IMG/VR virus record: IMGVR_UViG_3300028048_000105
Length of the DNA stretch: 13,673 nt
Reading direction: 5' to 3' (one strand)
Source of the DNA: a virus
Lineage: Duplodnaviria; Heunggongvirae; Uroviricota; Caudoviricetes
Part shown: piece by piece, positions 1-9,472 of the stretch
How the letters are laid out: the number at the start of each line of letters is the position of its first letter
Position numbering within the stretch: position 1 is the stretch's first letter
The notes under the pieces: generated by a model
The model's input: only the letters and a program-made list of their open reading frames with translations
What the model was told of the DNA's origin: nothing
The model's database searches: none
Translations under genes and position numbers: made by a program

Positions 1-103
1 CTTGGCTGGGAAGCTCCTGTAGTTGCCGCATAAGCCTTTCAGTTAAGTTCAAAATGAACGTTTAAAAGCTTGATAGGGGTAGTCTGCGCTTTTTTGGCTA
101 CCC
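1..103 (+). other. Structured non-coding segment, possibly the right end / omegaRNA 3' remnant of an IS200/IS605-IS607 family element
   Basis: GAAGCTCCT (10-18) ... AGGGGTAGTC (75-84) brackets an internal stem (AAGCCTTT 32-39 / AAAGCTT 65-71) and a GTTCA-AAA-TGAAC hairpin (47-59). A second hairpin is GGGTAGTC 77-84 / GGCTACCC 96-103. The layout resembles GAAGCYCC...GGRGTAG right ends of tnpB elements, but no transposase or tnpB lies in the window. Confidence 0.25.
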
Positions 104-135
104 GGAAGTAATTGTTTCAGAGTAAATATTTCATT

Positions 136-170
136 AAAAGAGTTCGTATGCAACGCGGACTCTTTTTTTT
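136..170 (+). terminator. Rho-independent terminator
   Basis: AAAAGAGTTCG (136-146) / CGGACTCTTTT (156-166) stem with one G-U pair; T-tract 163-170. Confidence 0.75.
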
Positions 171-172
171 CG

Positions 173-195
173 TTTCATATTGAATATGTAAACAA
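173..195 (+). repeat. Conserved 23-bp unit-start site, copy 1 (TTTCATATT-GAAT-ATGTAAACAA)
   Basis: Matches copies at 942, 3741 and 4970. It follows a terminator T-tract and starts 38 nt before GGAG. It contains a perfect dyad CATATT-G-AATATG. Confidence 0.9.
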
Positions 196-222
196 TTTGA
201 TGTATTGAAAGGAGAAAATGAT

Positions 223-903
223 ATGACAATTATCAAAATTGAACACGAATTAACAGAAGAACAGGAAAAGAAGATCATGGATGCAATCAATGCAATCGTA
301 CCTGACGATATGTTTTGCTGTCCACCAAGAATGATTGATGATGTAATCGCTTCAAAAATATGGACAAAAGATGATGTAAAAGGAGCGATTGAAGAATCTG
401 GCTATGAGCTTACCGAAGATTTACTTAACAAGACACTCCAAAATATGGGTAAAATGGATCAGCTTAATGATAGCCTGGACTATGAATGGAATTTCATACA
501 AGGGGCAGTAAATGATTCATACGAGGAACTCATTGAAGAGCTTGGATGGGGAAAATCTAATGATAACCAGTATATTAAGAAGCTAAGAGACGGTGTTTAC
601 AGATTGGTACAAAGCAGCAAAATGCCAGACGATAGTTACATCGTCTATATGAATACCATCATTCTTGCAAACTGGATGGATTCTGACGGTATGTACGATG
701 CAGATTGCACATCTATCGTTGAATCTTACTACGGATCAGTTGAAAACTTTAAATCAGAATATCCAGATTCGGATGACCAACAACAAATACTTGCAGAGAT
801 GATTTTCGAAAGCACTGCAAGTCGCGGTTGCGAAGCACGCGAAATAGTCACCGGGGAAAATGTCCAGAGAACAATTGACAAATTTCTGTTCCTGCAAGAG
901 TAA
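223..903 (+). CDS. Acidic hypothetical protein (226 aa)
   Basis: Long ORF. The start is moved from TTG 205 to ATG 223 because GAAAGGAG (207-214) sits 8 nt upstream. It ends TAA followed by a terminator. No family recognised with confidence. Confidence 0.85.
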   Translation: MTIIKIEHELTEEQEKKIMDAINAIVPDDMFCCPPRMIDDVIASKIWTKDDVKGAIEESGYELTEDLLNKTLQNMGKMDQLNDSLDYEWNFIQGAVNDSYEELIEELGWGKSNDNQYIKKLRDGVYRLVQSSKMPDDSYIVYMNTIILANWMDSDGMYDADCTSIVESYYGSVENFKSEYPDSDDQQQILAEMIFESTASRGCEAREIVTGENVQRTIDKFLFLQE

Positions 904-910
904 AAAAATT

Positions 911-940
911 AAGAAGAGCCTTCGGGTTCTTCTTTTTTTT
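911..940 (+). terminator. Rho-independent terminator with UUCG loop
   Basis: AAGAAGAGCC-TTCG-GGTTCTTCTT followed by a T-tract, 7 nt after the TAA at 903. Confidence 0.9.
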
Positions 941-941
941 A

Positions 942-964
942 TTTCATATTAAATGTGTAAACAA
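942..964 (+). repeat. Conserved 23-bp unit-start site, copy 2 (TTTCATATT-AAAT-GTGTAAACAA)
   Basis: Same motif and context: directly after a terminator, 37 nt before GGAG (979-982). Confidence 0.9.
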
Positions 965-990
965 AACTATTCACGAAGGGAGAAACAACT

Positions 991-2412
991 ATGAGCGAAA
1001 GATTAAACAAAAGTATCGAAATCCTTGAGAAAACAGCAAAGGAAATTGAGGATAAGAAGATTTCTGAGAAAAAGAAAGCCGACACCGAAAGAGCCTGTCT
1101 GATGCAGGAAATTCGGGATCTGAGATCACGGATTACTGACCTGATCAAAGCAGGACAGAAATGCCAGGAACTTGGAATTGATTTTCCAATAAAAAATGAA
1201 ATGTCCAGGTTCGAATACGACAGCTGTTTTGAAGCGGATGGCGTCAACCATGATCTTGGATTTATCACAAAGGAATTCAAGATCCGGTATCTTGGCATCA
1301 AAAACGGTGGATTTAACGGTCCATGGGATTTTTACACGGACGGAACAGAAATTGTATCTGTCAGAAACCGTGAATATGATAAGGAATCAGCAGAGCCACA
1401 GAACTGCGATATGAAAAAATTCCTGAAGCAGTTTGATTCCTTTGAATCTGCCTTTTACCAGTGGATCGAATCACTGAATAATGCAGAAGAGGATACTGAT
1501 GAAGCAGTTAATGATGAGTGCGTAAAGAGAATCAACCTGCGGAATCTGTATGAGAATGGAATCAAGTCTCTTACATTTGGAGGAACAGGAGAGATTATCT
1601 TCCGGGATGGACGGTATGTGCTGGAACATAATGCGCTTCCATTTATTGAAGATGGGGAAGAACTGAAATTCCAGTTCTTTGCTGATGCCGGTGATGGAGA
1701 AAGATTTGCCCTTGGTACTTCCAAAGAAGAACATGGGGTGTATCTGACAAAAGAGGAGTATGAGCTTGCCGTTGAGAACCCTGCGTTTTTAAAACTTCCA
1801 TCGTTTATCGAACTTGGCAAAACATACAAGTTTGCCGGATATAACTGGACAGCATGTGAGCTGATCAATAAAGGTAAAACCCTTGTGATCCAATCTCATG
1901 GAGTAACTGCGGGAGCATGGCCAGGCCTCGAAATGGCTCAATTTGGAAATGGCAATTACTATACAAATTCCATTGATGGCGAAGATATCAGTGCTTATGA
2001 CAACAAGATGAAAGAATTGTACGATGCCATCAAAGACGTAGAGGATACATCAGCTTCCTATGGAAACGGCCTGTATTTAGTATCCAGAGAGAAAGCCGGT
2101 TTTATAAAATTGGACAAACCTGGTTCTGGTAATTACTGGCGGGCATTGAAGGCGGCGGCAGCAAATTACAGTTTGTTCAGGGCTTCCAGCAGCAGCGCGT
2201 GGCTCAGTACTGTCTACAGCAACAACTACGCGCGGTATGTCTACTCGAATGGCCACGTCTACGGCAACTTTCAGAACAGCGACTTTGTTGTTGCTCCCAC
2301 ATTTAACCTCGATTTATCCAAAGTTGAGATTATTAATGATGAAATTATCATCATAGGGAATGACAATAACGATCAGTCTAAAAATCCATCAAATTTTGCA
2401 GAAAAGAAGTAA
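991..2412 (+). CDS. Multi-domain hypothetical protein (473 aa) with a C-terminal DUF6273/C-type-lectin-like segment; candidate DGR target
   Basis: RBS GAAGGGAG; N-terminal coiled coil. The C-terminal AWLSTVYSNNYARYVYSNGHVYGNFQNSDFVVAPTFNL resembles the W-L-x-[ST]...V-x-P-x-[FL] end of DUF6273-type domains. Confidence 0.85.
   Translation: MSERLNKSIEILEKTAKEIEDKKISEKKKADTERACLMQEIRDLRSRITDLIKAGQKCQELGIDFPIKNEMSRFEYDSCFEADGVNHDLGFITKEFKIRYLGIKNGGFNGPWDFYTDGTEIVSVRNREYDKESAEPQNCDMKKFLKQFDSFESAFYQWIESLNNAEEDTDEAVNDECVKRINLRNLYENGIKSLTFGGTGEIIFRDGRYVLEHNALPFIEDGEELKFQFFADAGDGERFALGTSKEEHGVYLTKEEYELAVENPAFLKLPSFIELGKTYKFAGYNWTACELINKGKTLVIQSHGVTAGAWPGLEMAQFGNGNYYTNSIDGEDISAYDNKMKELYDAIKDVEDTSASYGNGLYLVSREKAGFIKLDKPGSGNYWRALKAAAANYSLFRASSSSAWLSTVYSNNYARYVYSNGHVYGNFQNSDFVVAPTFNLDLSKVEIINDEIIIIGNDNNDQSKNPSNFAEKK
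2185..2310 (+). other. Putative DGR variable region (VR)
   Basis: 22 of 33 codons at 2185-2283 end in C, mostly AAC and AAC-derivable codons (TAC, AGC, GGC, CAC, GAC). The segment is visibly GC-richer than the DNA right after it. No template repeat or reverse transcriptase in the window. Confidence 0.55.
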
Positions 2413-2433
2413 GTATAAAATGGAGGAAATTTT

Positions 2434-2619
2434 ATGACAAATGAGCTTGCAAAAAATATTATTACAGAATACGTTTTCGCAGATTATGATATTTCATCAA
2501 TTTATAAATTTCTTAATACAGAAGCATCATTAGATGAATCGGAAAAACAATTATATTCCGAAGCATTGCTCACAAGGGCTATGCAAAAAGCGGTAATTGC
2601 ATTATCAAAGCCGGTCTGA
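2434..2619 (+). CDS. Small hypothetical protein (61 aa)
   Basis: GGAGG RBS 7 nt upstream; starts 21 nt after the preceding stop; AT-rich codons. Confidence 0.7.
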   Translation: MTNELAKNIITEYVFADYDISSIYKFLNTEASLDESEKQLYSEALLTRAMQKAVIALSKPV

Positions 2620-2674
2620 GAGACTATTTCGCAAAATATTTCTACAAAAAAAAGAGTAATATTTATCATCCCGA

Positions 2675-2745
2675 TGCACCGGGAACTAAAAATTGAGGTT
2701 CCCGTGCAAAGGGGAGCCTCTTTGTTTACCCGGTATGTAACCGGG
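2675..2745. other. Two intergenic hairpins
   Basis: TGCACCGGGAAC (2675-2686) / GTTCCCGTGCA (2698-2708) with one bulged base and no T-tract; CCCGGT-ATGTA-ACCGGG (2729-2745). Confidence 0.6.
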
Positions 2746-2761
2746 AGAAAGAGAGGAAAAT

Positions 2762-3697
2762 ATGATGAACAGACAGGATACAATTAAAACATTACAGCAG
2801 ATTGCTGCAGAGATTGCACAGGAAATGGGTTATACCGAGATGAGGGTAGGAGAAGACCGTCAGAAAGGTATCTGGGGAGAAAGTTTCACCCGATATCTTG
2901 AAGAAACCTACGGGGAATGTACCAAGGAAATCAGATGGTTTAAACCCGATGCACCAAAAGATCTGGCATTCGGTGACAACATCGAATTTTCATTCCGTTT
3001 CAGCGACCCACAGGTCTGTATTGACCACCGGAAAACAGATGGAAGCCTTGCAAATGTTGAATTTTCTGACTGGAATTCAGAGATTTACAACGAATACGAG
3101 AAAGAGAAATCTATCATGGAAGAACAGCTTGGAAGAAAGCTGACAAAAGAGGAAGATGCTCCCATTGAAGCAAAGCACCCATACCGCACCGGAAACTTCC
3201 GACCGAAGGAATACCAGGTATTTGAGAACGATAAGATGCAGGGTATGGAATTCCTTAACATGATTCTTGAAAAGTGGAACAAAGCTGTTTGCCGGAAAAC
3301 TGCCCTTACAGATAAGAATTCGATCATTGATAAGGTATGCATTAACTATCGGGAATACGACACAGAGCTTACCTCATTATTCTTCGATTTCCCTGTAAAA
3401 GCGGATAAGAATCTGCTTCTTGAGGCATACGCACATATCCAGAAAGCCTGTAACGGCGATACCGTTGTCCGCCTGCTCAACCCTGTTTTAACCAAAAACG
3501 GGGAAGAAAAGGAACTGGAAGGAGAAAAGATGGATGTGTTCTTCACGGAAGAAGAAAACGGGATATACGAAGGAAACTACAAGGATTTCCTCGAAAGCTT
3601 CAACGGACGGGAACTGGAAACAGGAATCTGCCGGCTGATGGACAGCGAAATGGATGGAAATACCACCAAAGGATCCATTTTGGATTTCATCTGGTAA
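2762..3697 (+). CDS. Acidic hypothetical protein (311 aa)
   Basis: Long ORF with GAGAGG RBS, ending TAA before a terminator. No family recognised. Confidence 0.85.
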   Translation: MMNRQDTIKTLQQIAAEIAQEMGYTEMRVGEDRQKGIWGESFTRYLEETYGECTKEIRWFKPDAPKDLAFGDNIEFSFRFSDPQVCIDHRKTDGSLANVEFSDWNSEIYNEYEKEKSIMEEQLGRKLTKEEDAPIEAKHPYRTGNFRPKEYQVFENDKMQGMEFLNMILEKWNKAVCRKTALTDKNSIIDKVCINYREYDTELTSLFFDFPVKADKNLLLEAYAHIQKACNGDTVVRLLNPVLTKNGEEKELEGEKMDVFFTEEENGIYEGNYKDFLESFNGRELETGICRLMDSEMDGNTTKGSILDFIW

Positions 3698-3707
3698 GAA
3701 AAGGAAG

Positions 3708-3739
3708 AAAAGTGTAGCTTAATGCTGCACTTTTTTTTT
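3708..3739 (+). terminator. Rho-independent terminator
   Basis: AAAAGTGTAGC-TTAAT-GCTGCACTTTT stem with one G-U pair, 9-T tract. Confidence 0.9.
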
Positions 3740-3740
3740 G

Positions 3741-3763
3741 TTTCATATTCCCTATGTAAACAA
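3741..3763 (+). repeat. Conserved 23-bp unit-start site, copy 3 (TTTCATATT-CCCT-ATGTAAACAA)
   Basis: Directly after a terminator, 39 nt before GGAG. Similarity to copy 4 extends about 44 nt through the RBS. Confidence 0.9.
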
Positions 3764-3787
3764 TTTTTTAAAGACGAAAGGAGAAAA

Positions 3788-4870
3788 ATGATGAAGAAAG
3801 ATGACTTTTCAAAGAGATTTCTGACAACAATCACATGCCCGGAGTGCGGAGGACGGATGATTGTAGAAGCGACAAGGGGAAACAGAGAAGATGCATTTTA
3901 GGCTTCCTGTTTTTTCTGTAATGAGTGCGGCAGAGACACGATCACGTTTGATGATCCGGATTTTGAATGGAAGAATGATGGAATCGTCCTTTCCCCTTCA
4001 CAGGCTGCTAGTATGCCTATCGGAGCAGGTAATGTCCGTAAGATTTTTGGATACTGCGATGATTTTCACAGCGGAGATGGAGAAAGAATCCTTTTCCGTA
4101 ATGGTGGCACTTATGTAGCTTTCCTCTGGGACAGAAAGCCGTATCTTAAGCAGGTTGCCGCTGTTGTTGAGAAATGCTGCAACAAGCTCATGGATGAAAT
4201 GTCTGGATAGACAAGCTACTGCAATAATAAGTCCATCAGCCGTACCGCATATGAAAGATACCAGCTTGACTGGATGATTTCGCATGGTCATTCGCTGGAA
4301 GAACTGTTCAGCATAATAGACAGCATCTGGAGTGATGACGAATATCCGGATGATCACTGTCCATCAGACTACTTTGAGGATTTCGAAAGCGATACAGGAT
4401 TTGGTGGCGAACTTTACGTCTGCTATGATGAATTCCTCGGCGCAGAATACCAGAACAAGGCGTATGTCAAGACGCTGCTGTCGCCAGAGGAGTATATCGT
4501 TTACTTAAACGACATTACTCCAACAGAAGTTCCATCCGGTGTATATCCTGCCGTGTGCAAGGCATGCCAGCATTGCTTTGAAAACGAAGATGGACGGGGC
4601 AATTGCGGATATTACGAGGAAAGTATTGATCCGGAGAACCCGATTGACGACTGTCCTCATTTTGTTAACAATAATGAGTACGGCATTTACCATCTTCTAT
4701 ACGACGAGACATATGTTTCCGAAAATGTCCAGACGGAAGAGGATATCACTGTCTTCGATGTTGTGAAATTTTTAAAGGAACACGGTACAAAGAAAGAACA
4801 GGATGAAATCAAGGATATCCTTTCACTGTCTGATTACGACGAAGAGCTCTGGACCCTGTCCGCAATTTAA
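3788..4870 (+). pseudogene. 361-codon reading frame (two CxxC motifs plus a YQLDWMISHG-type domain) interrupted by two in-frame TAG codons; pseudogene or amber-readthrough gene
   Basis: ATG 3788 follows GAAAGGAG. The frame is continuous to TAA 4870 except for TAG 3899-3901 and TAG 4208-4210. ORF-track fragments 4013-4210 and 4274-4870 are in this frame and lack their own RBS. The first TAG falls between CPECG and CNECG. Confidence 0.75.
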
Positions 4871-4893
4871 AGAAATCACAGGAGAAAAGAAGA

Positions 4894-4924
4894 AGAATGG
4901 GGTAACTATTCCCACTCTTTTTTT
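4894..4924 (+). terminator. Rho-independent terminator
   Basis: AGAATGGG (4894-4901) / CCCACTCT (4911-4918) with one mismatch, followed by a T-tract. Confidence 0.65.
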
Positions 4925-4969
4925 GTAGACATAATGGTAAAATACGCGTCTGTTAGTTCAAAAATTTCA

Positions 4970-4992
4970 TTTCATATTCCCTATGTAAACAT
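4970..4992 (+). repeat. Conserved 23-bp unit-start site, copy 4 (TTTCATATT-CCCT-ATGTAAACAT)
   Basis: 22 of 23 bases identical to copy 3; 38 nt before GGAG (5008-5011). Confidence 0.9.
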
Positions 4993-5020
4993 TTTTTAAA
5001 AGCGAAAGGAGATAAACTTT

Positions 5021-5440
5021 ATGATGAAAGAAAATGCATATAAGTCTGATATGGAGTCTTTTGTACGTGGTGAGATGTTATTTATCCGTGATTCCCTCTG
5101 TAATCGGTATAACGGCTACGGTGTTGTATTTGAAACAGGGGATGCAATTTTGAGAAAAGCCTCAGAAATCGCAAAACATCCTGTATCAAAATTTGATGCG
5201 CTCATCGGACAGTGTATCACGCTTCCTGACAGCAGGGAAATTCTACTGTATCCGTTAAAGCCTGCAGATTCTTCCAAATGTGCATCCGTTGTATATGCAC
5301 AGATAGGCAGTGAAGAACCGGGAGAAACGGGGTATTGCCAAACCTTCTGTCTGGCCGGGGATCTTGCCAAAGACCATGATGTGTTTGTTAAGATTCACGA
5401 ATGGGCTGACAGAAGCATCAAGGGAGGTGTGGCAGCATGA
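5021..5440 (+). CDS. Hypothetical protein (139 aa)
   Basis: GAAAGGAG RBS; the stop overlaps the radC start (ATGA), indicating translational coupling. Confidence 0.85.
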   Translation: MMKENAYKSDMESFVRGEMLFIRDSLCNRYNGYGVVFETGDAILRKASEIAKHPVSKFDALIGQCITLPDSREILLYPLKPADSSKCASVVYAQIGSEEPGETGYCQTFCLAGDLAKDHDVFVKIHEWADRSIKGGVAA

Positions 5441-5907
5441 GAGTAACGAATTACGAAGTGTTTCTTAATGAAGACAGAATACCTATGCTTGTTAAGGAAT
5501 CCGCAAGAAACTATGCAGGGAATATTTGTTTAACCAATCCTTCGCAGATTGCAGAATTTATGCGAGAATTGTATCATGCAGATATTCTTCCTGAAGAAAA
5601 GCTTTGGATGATTGCTATGAATACCAAGTGCAAGCCGCTCGGCGTATTTGAGCTGGCGCACGGAAGCATGGATTCAGCAGTGATGGATCCAAAGTCAATC
5701 TTTATAAGGCTGCTTCTTTGCGGAGCTAGAGGGTTCGTTCTGGTTCATAACCATCCAAGTGGGGACAGCACCCCAAGCGCGATTGATATTTCAAATACAA
5801 AGAAAGTAAAAGAAGGCGCAGAACTTCTTAGTATCGAGCTATTTGACCACATCATCGTAGGGGCGGATGCAACTTATTGTTCTTTACGAGAACAGGGAAA
5901 TTTTTAA
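5437..5907 (+). CDS. radC: RadC-family JAB/MPN domain protein (JAB domain only, 156 aa)
   Basis: EKLWMIAMNTKC, FVLVHNHPSGDSTPSAID and LFDHIIVG match the RadC JAB metal-binding motifs; GGAGG RBS. Confidence 0.92.
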   Translation: MRVTNYEVFLNEDRIPMLVKESARNYAGNICLTNPSQIAEFMRELYHADILPEEKLWMIAMNTKCKPLGVFELAHGSMDSAVMDPKSIFIRLLLCGARGFVLVHNHPSGDSTPSAIDISNTKKVKEGAELLSIELFDHIIVGADATYCSLREQGNF

Positions 5908-5942
5908 CATCAGAGGAAATACATGAGAAAAGGAGACTAACT

Positions 5943-6218
5943 ATGACTATTAGACAATATATCAAAAAGAATGGATGGGAAAACGAATGTGAACTGGTGC
6001 CGGGATACCGGTACATGATCGTCCACATCAATTTCCTTAACAAAAATAAGGCAGAAATTGAAACGAGCCTTGATATCAAGGCTTTTGATGAACATGATTT
6101 ATCATCACTGTTCAACAATTTCTGCAGAGAAAATGGTTTCCCACGAAACACCGTGACAGGTGTCACCGTTGTGGCTTCAGCAGTCACCATGGAAGAGTTA
6201 CAGGAAATCGATCTTTAA
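5943..6218 (+). CDS. Hypothetical protein (91 aa)
   Basis: Start moved to ATG 5943 behind AGGAG (5931-5935); in frame with ORF-track 5877-6218. Confidence 0.8.
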   Translation: MTIRQYIKKNGWENECELVPGYRYMIVHINFLNKNKAEIETSLDIKAFDEHDLSSLFNNFCRENGFPRNTVTGVTVVASAVTMEELQEIDL

Positions 6219-6229
6219 AAACCAGACAA

Positions 6230-6261
6230 GAGGAATCCATGAAGGGTTCCTCCTTTTTTTT
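6230..6261 (+). terminator. Terminator between convergent genes
   Basis: GAGGAATCC-ATGAA-GGGTTCCTC stem followed by 8 T, at the strand switch. Confidence 0.85.
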
Positions 6262-6274
6262 CGTCGTATTTTTC

Positions 6275-7339
6275 TCATTTGTGTTTCGCCACTGTATGGA
6301 GCCAGTCACTGGCAGCAGAAGCAGCTTCCTTCCGTTTTTCTTCACTGATATCCGCATAACGCGCGGTCGTGTTCACTGATTTGTGCCCCAGCGCGTTCTG
6401 CACCAGATAAATGTCCCCTGTGGAGTTGTAGACACCGGTCGCAAAGGTGCTCCGCAACTTATGAGGGGTAATATGCTTGCTCTGTACCGCAACCGAAGCA
6501 TATTTCTTAACCAGACGTTGCACAGACCGTGGAGTGATGCGGGTTCCGTTGCGGGAAATAAAGAGGGCATTATTGTCGCTTTCAAGTTCCATTTCTTCCC
6601 GTTCCTCCATATAGGCACCAAGCAATTCCGCGGCAGTTTCGTCAAAGTAGATATTCGAATATTTCCGTCCTTTCCGCACAACAAGGATGCTGTTTTCCTC
6701 CCAGTCGATATCCTGAATGTCAAGCCCCACGCATTCGGAAATACGGATTCCCGTAGAGAGCATGAGATAGATCATTGCTATATCACGCGGTTTCTGCTTG
6801 TCAGAGAAAGCGTGCTGATGCCTGGTGAGCCCATCCCCGGTTTTAATGGTATCTAAAAGGAGAGTGATCTCCTCATCTTTTAAGTAAGTGATCGGCTTCG
6901 TAATTAGCTTTGGGGACGGGAACATTGCTGCAGCATTGTTCGCGATTAAGCCTTTTCCTATCAGATATTTGTATAGAGCGCGGATGGAAGCAAGTTTTCT
7001 TGCCCGGGCAGGATTGTCATCCATATAGATTTCCCCGTCTTTTTCGTAGCCTGTCTGTAGCCTCATCATAATGTCTTCGAAATCATCTGTATTCAGATGA
7101 TCCAGAACGTCCACTGTTATATCTTTTTTACTTTTGATAACAGGATTGATTTCCATGATAATCTGGAAAATAATGGAGATATCCCTGACGTATTCGTACA
7201 CCGTAAGGATACTGGCATTCTTTACGGTTGTCATGTGCGTGACAAAACGCATCATGTAATCCGGCAGATCCTGTATAGTCTTGCTTATTTTCTCACTTGT
7301 AGATGTATTTCGTTTCTTCTGATAGTTTTTCTCGTCCAT
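6275..7339 (-). CDS. XerC/XerD-like tyrosine recombinase (354 aa), clostridial Xer type
   Basis: Full catalytic set: LSTGIRISE (R), RKGRK (K), TPHKLRST (HxxR), LGHKSVNTTARY (H, Y). An N-terminal core-binding domain is present (RARKLASIRALYKYL). Start moved to ATG 7339 behind GGAGGT. Confidence 0.93.
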   Translation of the reverse strand: MDEKNYQKKRNTSTSEKISKTIQDLPDYMMRFVTHMTTVKNASILTVYEYVRDISIIFQIIMEINPVIKSKKDITVDVLDHLNTDDFEDIMMRLQTGYEKDGEIYMDDNPARARKLASIRALYKYLIGKGLIANNAAAMFPSPKLITKPITYLKDEEITLLLDTIKTGDGLTRHQHAFSDKQKPRDIAMIYLMLSTGIRISECVGLDIQDIDWEENSILVVRKGRKYSNIYFDETAAELLGAYMEEREEMELESDNNALFISRNGTRITPRSVQRLVKKYASVAVQSKHITPHKLRSTFATGVYNSTGDIYLVQNALGHKSVNTTARYADISEEKRKEAASAASDWLHTVAKHK

Positions 7340-7398
7340 AAATACCTCCATGGCACATTTATTCGCACCAAATCGTAACTTTTTGTGTATGGTTGAGG

Positions 7399-7618
7399 AA
7401 AATATGTGGTATAGCATATTTTGCCCAAAATAAGGCGAATAAACTGGTGTATACGGTGCCTTTTTTATTTTCGCCCTTATTGCGTCGTAAAATGATTATT
7501 TTGCGACGCAATATAAATATATAATACCACTATCCCATCCGGGTGTAAATGGGAAAATCAATGCTTCCCGCAGTGGTGTCATTTCCTGTAGCAAAAATAT
7601 GACAGGTGACGCCACTGC
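7399..7618. repeat. Cluster of five inverted repeats upstream of the recombinase
   Basis: AAAATATG-N8-CATATTTT (7399-7422); AATAAGGCGAA / TTCGCCCTTATT (7429-7481); ATTGCGTCGTAAAAT-GATT-ATTTTGCGACGCAAT (7479-7512, 14 of 15 Watson-Crick); TCCCAT / ATGGGA (about 7532-7554); GCAGTGGTGTCA / TGACGCCACTGC with inner CCTGT/ACAGG (7570-7618). Confidence 0.8.
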
Positions 7619-8413: not shown

Positions 8414-8442
8414 ATTATACATATGCAATGTATTAGTTTCAA
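8414..8442 (-). promoter_or_regulatory. Sigma-A type promoter for the coiled-coil/HTH gene
   Basis: Minus strand TTGAAA-N17-TATAAT, with the -35 overlapping the HD gene stop. A leader hairpin AATGAGGG/CCCTCATT lies at 8356-8388. Confidence 0.75.
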
Positions 8443-9452
8443 TAATTATTTTTTGAGACTATCTGGCTGTTTTGTGCAAGTTCAAGGATTTTCTCGACAT
8501 CCGTCTCAAAAACGGCATCTTTTGGATATACATGGTCATTCCTGTCCGCAATCCGCAATTTGCACCACCTCTGTAAGAAGCCCTCCTCCGAGTTTTCCAT
8601 GACAGCTCTTACGTTTTCTTCTGATGCCAGCAGTTTCATCCCATGGTATCCGACCAGTTCCAGAATGATCCTCGTTTCTTCTGCAGAAAATTCAAAGCGG
8701 CAAAGGATCTTTTTTGCAATCTCCTCACTAGCTGTTGCATGTCCTCTAAAATGCCGATGCCCGGATGCATCTTCTGTGCATACCGATGGTTTACCAATAT
8801 CGTGTAGAAAGGCTGCCATTTTTGTGCAGAAATCATCCGTTTGACAGCCATCCACAACCGCAAGTGTATGTTCGTACACATCATGCTTGTGGTATATGCT
8901 TTTCTGATCAAATCCAATGCACGGTTTCATCTCCGGAAGAATCGCTGCAACTACATCGGAAAATTCCAGGAATGCACAGGAAATGCTTTTTCCACAGGTT
9001 AGCACTGTACGGAACCAGTCCGTGTTTGAATGTGTCTGCTCTTTTATTGTGGATACGAATGCCGGGTCTTTTGTTAACCTATGTATCATTTTGGTTACTT
9101 TATCCAGTCTCGGCATCTGCGGATTAAAAACAAGTGAAGTAATCGTGTCTCTGACCATTTTACAGGCATCCCTCACATTTAAGTCGCTGCCAAACTTGAA
9201 ATCGTTCTTACACAGCTCACTGTAGTTGATTTCCTTATCTTTCAGATGCTTCAGATATTGGCATCTTTTCATTTCCTCCGCTGTCTGTGGTATTTCCATA
9301 AGAATGTTTTCAATTTCATCAAGCAGGTTGATAATCTTCTGCGTGTGCATATCTGCTTCTTCCAACGCCTCATCGTCTTCCGGTAAGACTGCCATGCGGT
9401 ACACGGATGCTTTTATCTCTTTAATTTTCTCGTGTATTTCCATATTTTCCAT
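8439..9452 (-). CDS. HD-domain protein resembling the C-terminal HD region of CCA-adding enzymes, without a nucleotidyltransferase domain (337 aa)
   Basis: LPEMKPCIGFDQKSIYHKHDVYEHTLAVV ... AAFLHDIGKP ... HFRGHATASEEIA ... ADRNDH matches CCA-enzyme HD domains. No DxD polymerase motif is seen upstream. Start moved to ATG 9452 behind GAGGT. Confidence 0.85.
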   Translation of the reverse strand: MENMEIHEKIKEIKASVYRMAVLPEDDEALEEADMHTQKIINLLDEIENILMEIPQTAEEMKRCQYLKHLKDKEINYSELCKNDFKFGSDLNVRDACKMVRDTITSLVFNPQMPRLDKVTKMIHRLTKDPAFVSTIKEQTHSNTDWFRTVLTCGKSISCAFLEFSDVVAAILPEMKPCIGFDQKSIYHKHDVYEHTLAVVDGCQTDDFCTKMAAFLHDIGKPSVCTEDASGHRHFRGHATASEEIAKKILCRFEFSAEETRIILELVGYHGMKLLASEENVRAVMENSEEGFLQRWCKLRIADRNDHVYPKDAVFETDVEKILELAQNSQIVSKNNY

Positions 9453-9472
9453 TTGCAATTACCTCAGTGTAT

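Follow-up and report, generated by a model that had tools for sequence, protein, structure and literature searches.

A repeated box between terminators and ribosome-binding sites as the probable core of a mobile promoter cassette in a conjugative plasmid-like element of gut Lachnospiraceae

The window analysed here is the whole of a 13,673-nucleotide (nt) stretch of DNA filed as IMG/VR virus record IMGVR_UViG_3300028048_000105, and the carrier of this DNA is a large conjugative plasmid-like element of human-gut Lachnospiraceae. The window contains an array of accessory genes, and at four places within this array a conserved 22-bp box, TTTCATATT-N4-RTGTAAACAW, is located between a terminator-like hairpin and a ribosome-binding site (RBS). 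Judged from the sequence, a promoter that is non-canonical and specific to the element probably has this box as its core, with a probability of about 0.7. The box would be part of a mobile regulatory cassette, portable and ~70-90 nt long, to which the intrinsic terminator upstream and a strong GAAAGGAGA RBS downstream also belong. Each cassette would end transcription of the preceding unit and restart it, and every accessory unit of one to three genes would then be an insulated transcription unit. The box would be read by a factor that is encoded by the element itself, and the cassettes belong to this element as well as to other conjugative elements of the same hosts. Since the cassette is repeated, it may supply portable homology through which units enter or leave the array or replace one another, presumably by homologous or microhomology recombination with no dedicated recombinase. 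This reading draws on the anatomy of the box, its orientation and spacing towards the genes, its restriction to certain elements, its occurrence before a sigma factor gene and the differences in modules among relatives.

The box pattern was detected as four exact matches in the window, at 173, 942, 3741 and 4970, all on the plus strand, and gave 0 matches in 200 dinucleotide-preserving shuffles of the window. An independent repeat finder recovered the same four sites as a family of 51-nt repeats (168-218, 937-987, 3736-3786 and 4965-5015), spanning the T run, the box and GGAG. The fuller consensus of the box reads T-run, R, TYTCATATT, N4, R, TGTAAAYA. Terminator-like hairpins and T runs (136-166, 911-934 and 3703-3739) stop 1-2 nt upstream of copies 1 to 3, and the hairpin ahead of copy 4 (4898-4914) ends ~45 nt upstream, while GGAG begins 37-39 nt past the start of the motif for all four copies in the window. 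The gap from the T run to the RBS measures ~40 nt, and the box is the sole conserved element inside this gap. Units extend from a box to a terminator, and where a unit holds several genes, the internal ones, for instance those within 5021-6218, are accompanied by neither box nor terminator. An earlier note on this DNA, made from the sequence alone, had described the four copies, their placement after terminators and 37-39 nt ahead of GGAG, and the resulting modules of terminator, site, RBS and gene; all of this was borne out by the pattern scan with its shuffles, the independent repeat finder and the terminator scan. The same note took the array to start at 136, but further and more degenerate copies of the box sit upstream of the window, at 8900, 9944, 11939 and 18377 of a related locus (L125; loci are numbered with L, genomes with G and contigs with C).

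When related loci amounting to 333 kb were scanned with a weight matrix, 45 distinct copies of the box were obtained. All 45 copies face an RBS, which is found between +33 and +42, and a start codon, found between about +45 and +57. A T run of at least 5 lies directly ahead of 37 copies, and for 28 copies a stable hairpin (-12 to -21 kcal/mol) with its T run occupies this place. The orientation is direct throughout, for the four copies in the window, for the four upstream copies in L125, and for the copies on each single contig of the Lachnospiraceae genome MGYG-HGUT-00136 (G001). The centre of the box is highly variable, with 30 different forms among the 45 sites. The consensus is quasi-palindromic (88% of cells pair) and can pair TTTCAT with ATG-T-AAA as a 6-bp bulged hairpin. 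The imperfect dyad with one unpaired T, as described in the earlier note, is possible as a pairing, but no covariation supports a folded, integron-like site: among 40 distinct rows, compensatory change was detected in 0 of 6 pairs, and shuffled controls scored equally. Nothing in the dyad speaks for an attC-like fold or for a hairpin site. In 13 copies T2 has become C without a counterpart in the opposite half, and the two halves are unequal, one carrying an extra T. This uncompensated change and this asymmetry fit a directional signal.

The surroundings of the window were rebuilt from public contigs coding for the same proteins. Upstream of the window are the genes for PrgI, a VirB4-type ATPase, TopB topoisomerase, a penicillin-binding protein, dUTPase and a sigma-70-family protein of 236 amino acids (aa), and nearer to the window are additional box-headed units and a five-gene operon for NAD+ salvage and synthesis. 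A gene for MobV (Mob_Pre) relaxase is located 7-8 kb past the end of the window. With genes of a type IV secretion system (T4SS) and TopB upstream and the MobV relaxase downstream, the window lies in the interior of a large conjugative plasmid-like element; the possibility that it represents the end of a small integrated element was rejected, because conjugation genes flank it on both sides. The T4SS genes of the element carry no box copies.

An exact-pattern scan of 185,579 species genomes gave ~90 loci, almost all being single chance matches in unrelated taxa. The real exceptions were G001, with matches on three contigs, and one gut bin (G002), with two copies. At up to 2 mismatches, G001 contains 19 copies of the box, of which 17 are located on four contigs, all copies on any one contig sharing the same strand, and the reversed control pattern gave 0. 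The box contigs of G001 encode a VirD4-type coupling protein, an actin-like partition protein and a 3,766-aa surface protein, and share almost no proteins with the element of the window; the same terminator hairpin and box are thus present in elements with almost no proteins in common. The box was at control level in 400 other Lachnospiraceae genomes, nine single matches in IMG/VR correspond to the background level, and megablast of window positions 1-7500 against phage and plasmid collections gave no match. This restriction to a few elements, with background elsewhere, indicates that the box is confined to a set of conjugative elements, and that it is no host signal. A literature search for the box sequence returned nothing relevant, and no description of the signal was found in the searchable literature.

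If the terminators are working, transcription must restart within the gap of ~40 nt between T run and RBS. A sigma-70 scan detected no TTGACA/TATAAT-like pair with 16-18 bp spacing upstream of the RBS for any of the four copies. Nearby matches of sigma-70 type are limited to 205-233 and 4996-5025; both are weak (9 of 12) and overlap the RBS and start codon. The box was also compared by eye with consensus sites for sigma-E, -K, -H, -D, -54, extracytoplasmic function (ECF) and TcdR-type factors, and with T4 late, MotA, cre, Spo0A and LacI-type sites, but none fits in both sequence and spacing. In one small metatranscriptome of bovine gut, four short contigs are identical to the window (214-388, 384-534, 704-854 and 5733-5967); the first begins at 214, past box copy 1, which is a weak indication.

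The 236-aa protein of the element contains sigma regions 2 and 4, and ahead of its gene (L128:5975-6685) stands TTTCACATT-AATA-TTGTAAACA, spaced from the RBS as in the other copies, in this case with no terminator and no array. The same 22-mer is present ahead of a sigma homolog that is only 56% identical, and the flanks have diverged. A box in front of the sigma gene fits self-activation by a private sigma factor, and the 236-aa protein is a tentative, somewhat doubtful, candidate for the factor that reads the box. This sigma family is a narrow one, with only nine clusters found, the most distant being 56% identical, and its genes always stand beside those for dUTPase and TopB.

Comparison of ten loci with closely related arrays revealed differences from the window in whole units. 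An extra module of box, gene and terminator was found between the last terminator, directly after its T run, and the recombinase gene in L162, L164, L166, L168 and L163; diverged versions of the module beside the recombinase exist in L170, L187 and L189, and a decayed remnant in L165, L169 and L171. The limits of this module fall in the T runs of two distinct terminators, 22 nt ahead of its box, and the corresponding empty junction (window 6253-6275) contains no box. A recombinase acting from site to site should leave one site behind, and the empty junction without a box therefore argues against site-specific excision. Three loci (L168, L171 and L189) have a paralog in place of the upstream neighbour of the 942 copy, and homology begins 8 nt before the box; the gene behind this copy is exchanged in L166, L170, L172 and L189, where homology stops at +65 to +68. 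For two exchanges at the 942-type site, a position inside the box itself is possible. L162 lacks the 473-aa and 61-aa genes, and its 311-aa gene stands directly behind a degenerate box, with a centre of 5 bases instead of 4, at the place where the leader of 2658-2760 precedes the 311-aa gene elsewhere. In L165, a unit that is found 12.6 kb upstream in the reference is now beside the RadC gene, and homology begins 7 nt before its box.

Relative to a box, the block boundaries among L162-L172, L187 and L189 lie at -8, -7, 0, +29 and +65 to +68; others lie in the T run ahead of it. According to our own count, ~9 of ~20 distinct boundaries fall within -31 to +68 of a box, such windows covering about 1/10 of the sequence. 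The boxless junction and the scattered boundaries fit recombination anywhere in the repeated 70-90-nt cassette, or T-run microhomology, and correspond to the published picture of promoter-early stem-loop (PeSL) cassettes in T4-type phages. The cassette-shuffling system proposed in the earlier note is thus retained in so far as modules are gained, lost and replaced, with many boundaries in or by the cassette, but not in its site-specific Xer mechanism; likewise, the comparison of breakpoints that it had suggested found many breaks in or next to the cassette, but at scattered positions and in some cases inside genes. The contigs of three runs contained no box-to-box joints or circle junctions, such data being unable to show absence.

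Several observations weigh against the promoter reading. The starts of the two conserved blocks are separated by only 14-16 bp, less than a normal pair of -35 and -10 requires, and the would-be -35 position falls in the variable stems of the hairpins; the promoter reading was accordingly kept at the probability given above, and the sigma protein as reader of the box was placed clearly below it. The box before the sigma gene may indicate mere membership of this gene in the regulon. A search for homologs of the candidate sigma in the box-bearing genomes G001 and G002 gave none, G002 being a 1.7-Mb bin that is probably incomplete. None of the many sigma genes of G001 is located on a box-bearing contig or near a box, and no box was detected near other sigma genes on small contigs. 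The RNA library is too thin for a start site, with a depth of about 3 and possible carry-over of DNA. As to the exchange of units, several breakpoints lie inside genes (the RadC gene has suffered a 340-bp deletion and a 3-kb insertion, and L165 shows a gene fusion), and selection for intact genes alone would concentrate the surviving breakpoints in the intergenic cassettes.

Among the alternatives, the one that survives best, though unlikely, is that the box is mainly an operator or activator site of an element-encoded DNA-binding regulon switch, the contacts of RNA polymerase being weak and located within or beside the box. The quasi-palindromic consensus and the confinement of the box to these elements agree with such a role, as do a geometry that suits no sigma-70-type promoter and the lack of a sigma homolog among the genes found in G001. 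On the other hand, the inequality of the two halves with one extra T, and the T2-to-C change that stays uncompensated in 13 copies, speak against it. A start signal would still be required within the same 40 nt, and the operator model therefore overlaps with the promoter model rather than replacing it.

It is considerably less probable that the box acts in RNA, transcription reading through past leaky terminators and the box being a processing, stabilising or translation-control element of 5' leaders. The constant location between terminator and RBS and the capacity of the consensus for the 6-bp bulged hairpin are as expected for such an element, but the stem is AT-rich and weak, and carries no compensatory changes. 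Rfam search gave no match at the box, nor at the 2658-2760 leader. Furthermore, most of the upstream hairpins have the character of strong terminators (-12 to -21 kcal/mol followed by T6-9), and the RNA contig over gene 1 starts past the box, a point of little weight.

The earlier note had proposed that the box may be a recombination site of dif/pdif or integron type, at which the neighbouring Xer-type recombinase, or the Xer proteins of the host, would move gene cassettes. The Bacillus subtilis dif sequence is as given in that note (PMC3025954), and for all four copies in the window the right half matches its right, XerD-binding arm at 8-9 of 11 positions, as the note had stated. For the whole 28-bp dif site, however, the four copies give 16-18 matches against 17-19 for the best sites in the shuffled window. 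The inner CAT and ATG of the box are 7 nt apart instead of 10 as in dif, a spacing that does not let the arms flank a 6-8-bp centre in the dif register. The recombinase gene in the window is intact as claimed (Phage_integrase, E 3.7e-37), and its product is nearer to Xer proteins than to phage integrases by profile scores, in agreement with the affinity proposed in the note. The NCBIfam scores are 204 bits for XerS (cut-off 267), 182 for XerC (335) and 161 for XerD (330), the integron integrase model gives 70.9 bits against a cut-off of 265, and the best solved relatives are XerA, XerD and XerH. On these scores the recombinase is Xer-like in a broad sense, and is an ortholog of none of these proteins.

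The link between this recombinase and the box is weak. At 17 metagenome loci (305 kb) with recombinases 72-75% identical, no box was found within 10 kb. In G001, no such recombinase is present on the contigs with box arrays, and the nearest homolog (39% identity) is encoded on a boxless contig. A single box copy also stands before the sigma gene. The variation of module content directly by the recombinase gene and the two exchanges that can lie inside the box are in favour of a recombination site, but taken together with the dif match at the level of shuffles, the dyad without covariation, the 30 forms of the centre, the direct orientation of all copies with each facing an RBS at a fixed distance, the boxless empty junction and the failure of the recombinase at every curated Xer and IntI cut-off, such a site is very improbable. 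The alternative that the earlier note had held equally live, a role as promoter or operator, is the better reading.

Features of the window, with coordinates from its first letter
Feature	Coordinates	Strand	Basis
Intrinsic terminator, hairpin + T8, ends upstream unit	136..170	+	Terminator scan: 12-pair stem 136-166 + T run
Box copy 1, TTTCATATT GAAT ATGTAAACA, heads unit 1	173..194	+	Pattern and repeat scan; position weight matrix (PWM) score 30.1
Unit 1 gene, 226 aa, without family match	223..903	+	Open reading frame (ORF), profile search
Unit 1 terminator	911..940	+	Terminator scan
Box copy 2, heads unit 2	942..963	+	Pattern and PWM
Unit 2 gene, 473 aa; multi-copy family, common C-terminal domain at aa ~273-470	991..2412	+	
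61-aa gene of unit 2	2434..2619	+	
Alternative conserved leader with two hairpins, ahead of 311-aa gene in place of box	2658..2760	+	
311-aa gene, without family match	2762..3697	+	
Terminator	3703..3739	+	Terminator scan
Box copy 3	3741..3762	+	Pattern and PWM
Unit 3: short zinc-ribbon-like ORF, ORF pieces to 4210, then 198-aa gene (4274-4870)	3788..4870	+	
Weak terminator ~45 nt ahead of box copy 4	4898..4924	+	Terminator scan
Box copy 4, heads three-gene unit 4	4970..4991	+	Pattern and PWM
Unit 4: 139-aa gene, RadC-like JAB protein (5437-5907), 91-aa gene	5021..6218	+	RadC E 9e-34
Terminator closing the array	6230..6261	+	Terminator scan and relatives
Xer-like tyrosine recombinase, no ortholog of XerC/D/S or IntI	6275..7339	-	Phage_integrase E 3.7e-37
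Recombinase control block: TTTACA-17-TATTAT promoter-like site, then palindrome with 14-bp arms	7479..7549	-	

The recombinase gene is itself subject to exchange. In L187 and L189 it is replaced by an allele 71% identical in DNA, with both flanks 92-95% identical. When L187, L189 and L172 are aligned with 6300-7551 of the window, the recombinase alleles are 71-80% identical in DNA and the flanks 88-95%, and L187 carries a further 1.4-kb insert beside the recombinase. A control block of ~75 bp (window 7479-7549, minus strand) is kept upstream of every recombinase allele, including the alleles of 72-75% identity in boxless loci. It includes a palindrome at 7479-7511, and may be the operator of the recombinase itself.

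With respect to the genes of the array, the 473-aa protein gave a weak match to phrog_9958; the Atlas search gave a DUF6273-like protein as a lead only, and nothing for the 311-aa protein. Members of the 473-aa family have a conserved C-terminal domain (window 1810-2350) and variable N-termini, and several tandem paralogs, each with its own box, are present in G001 (contigs C49, C78 and C28), L168, L171 and L189. The leader ahead of the 311-aa gene (~100 nt) is kept in L166, L168, L169, L171 and L189. The first ORF of unit 3 is interrupted by a TAG stop at 3899-3901, and the frame is open again at 4013-4210. This split of gene calls was seen again in several independent assemblies, and the ORF may be a pseudogene or be expressed by read-through. 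The RadC gene is a hotspot of damage, with the 340-bp internal deletion in L164 and an insertion of ~3.07 kb at about 5751-5755 in L168 and L171.

Outside the array, the HD-domain protein of 8439-9458 (minus strand) adjoins an HNH nuclease and a helix-turn-helix (HTH) protein. HD-nuclease MOBH-like relaxases have been described in a preprint of 2026 on the gut 'Hodor' megaplasmid, which says nothing of promoters or sigma factors (PMC12934698). The NAD+ operon upstream of the window (L119:4204-9286) codes for an NrtR-like Nudix protein, a nucleotidyltransferase, an isochorismatase/PncA-like protein, NAPRTase and NAD synthase. The presence of this operon and of RadC suggests cargo for counter-defence or host takeover.

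Should the box prove to be a private promoter, it would tag a whole regulon of accessory genes with unknown functions, RadC included, and a full NAD+ salvage operon is found among the box-headed units just upstream; the 22-bp motif would then be a handle for finding and expressing such genes. In the human gut, the conjugative element that carries the box is very common. Repeated cassettes of terminator and promoter would explain how single genes are collected and exchanged without a dedicated recombinase. That all parts of this picture hold jointly, namely a new class of promoter with blocks ~14 bp apart and no -35, a specificity factor encoded by conjugative megaplasmids of gut Firmicutes, a cassette that moves single genes between unrelated conjugative elements, and the first case of PeSL-like shuffling (see below) outside T4-type phages, we regard as rather unlikely.

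A dif/Xer site measures 28-31 bp, consists of two partly palindromic arms of ~11 bp around a 6-8-bp centre, and has XerC/D, XerS or XerH as its recombinase; the box resembles its right arm only, the site as a whole failing to match. The likeness to dif and pdif lies in an AT-rich site with an arm of the ATGTAAAC type and, as for the pdif modules of Acinetobacter plasmids, in a Xer-like recombinase close by and accessory genes between the sites. In contrast, the XerC-type arm is missing in the box, the spacing is wrong, and the recombinase scores below the Xer cut-offs. Sites of pdif modules form inverted pairs (C/D then D/C), whereas all sites here are direct and each is tied to an RBS. With integrons the array shares the co-oriented arrangement of unrelated genes beside a tyrosine recombinase gene. 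The integrase of integrons has a specific insertion and its gene is divergent from attI and Pc, whereas the recombinase gene here is convergent with the array. The attC sites of integrons are folded imperfect palindromes at the 3' end of promoterless cassettes, whereas the sites here are located 5' of the units, by the RBS and after terminators. The box has neither a GTTRRRY core nor a folded site backed by covariation, and in the recombinase no signature of IntI is present (71 bits, cut-off 265). A resemblance to a single dif arm, combined with a Xer-like gene close by, is not enough for a cassette integron.

Phages and other elements may direct their own sigma cascades with private promoter motifs, as does Bacillus phage SPO1 with gp28 and gp33/34. 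Here too, a mobile element codes for a sigma-70-family protein, and a motif foreign to the host is present on many genes, the sigma gene among them. The present case differs in the block spacing, which is unlike that of -35 and -10, and in the box-bearing genomes G001 and G002, in which no sigma homolog was found, and the connection between sigma and box is putative.

The closest parallel is provided by the PeSLs of T4-type phages, in which a stem-loop terminator, a promoter, a Shine-Dalgarno sequence and a start codon are repeated as a unit in front of small, mostly unknown and non-essential genes in variable regions; between close relatives of these phages, insertions, deletions and replacements have their ends at the cassettes, and both promoter activity and mini-circles have been demonstrated (Arbiol et al. 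2010, PMC2839356; Comeau et al. 2014, PMC4122927). The present carrier is a conjugative plasmid-like element of Firmicutes and not a phage, the putative promoter part is not sigma-70-like, and the stem-loop is always upstream of the box, whereas in PeSLs it is interleaved with -35 and -10. The two systems agree in a repeated stem-loop and Shine-Dalgarno sequence before accessory genes, the conserved box between them being a putative promoter in the present case, and in insertions, deletions and replacements between close relatives that are bounded by cassettes, with some breakpoints inside genes in the present case. On this parallel, a mechanism known only from T4-type phages would extend to plasmids of Firmicutes.

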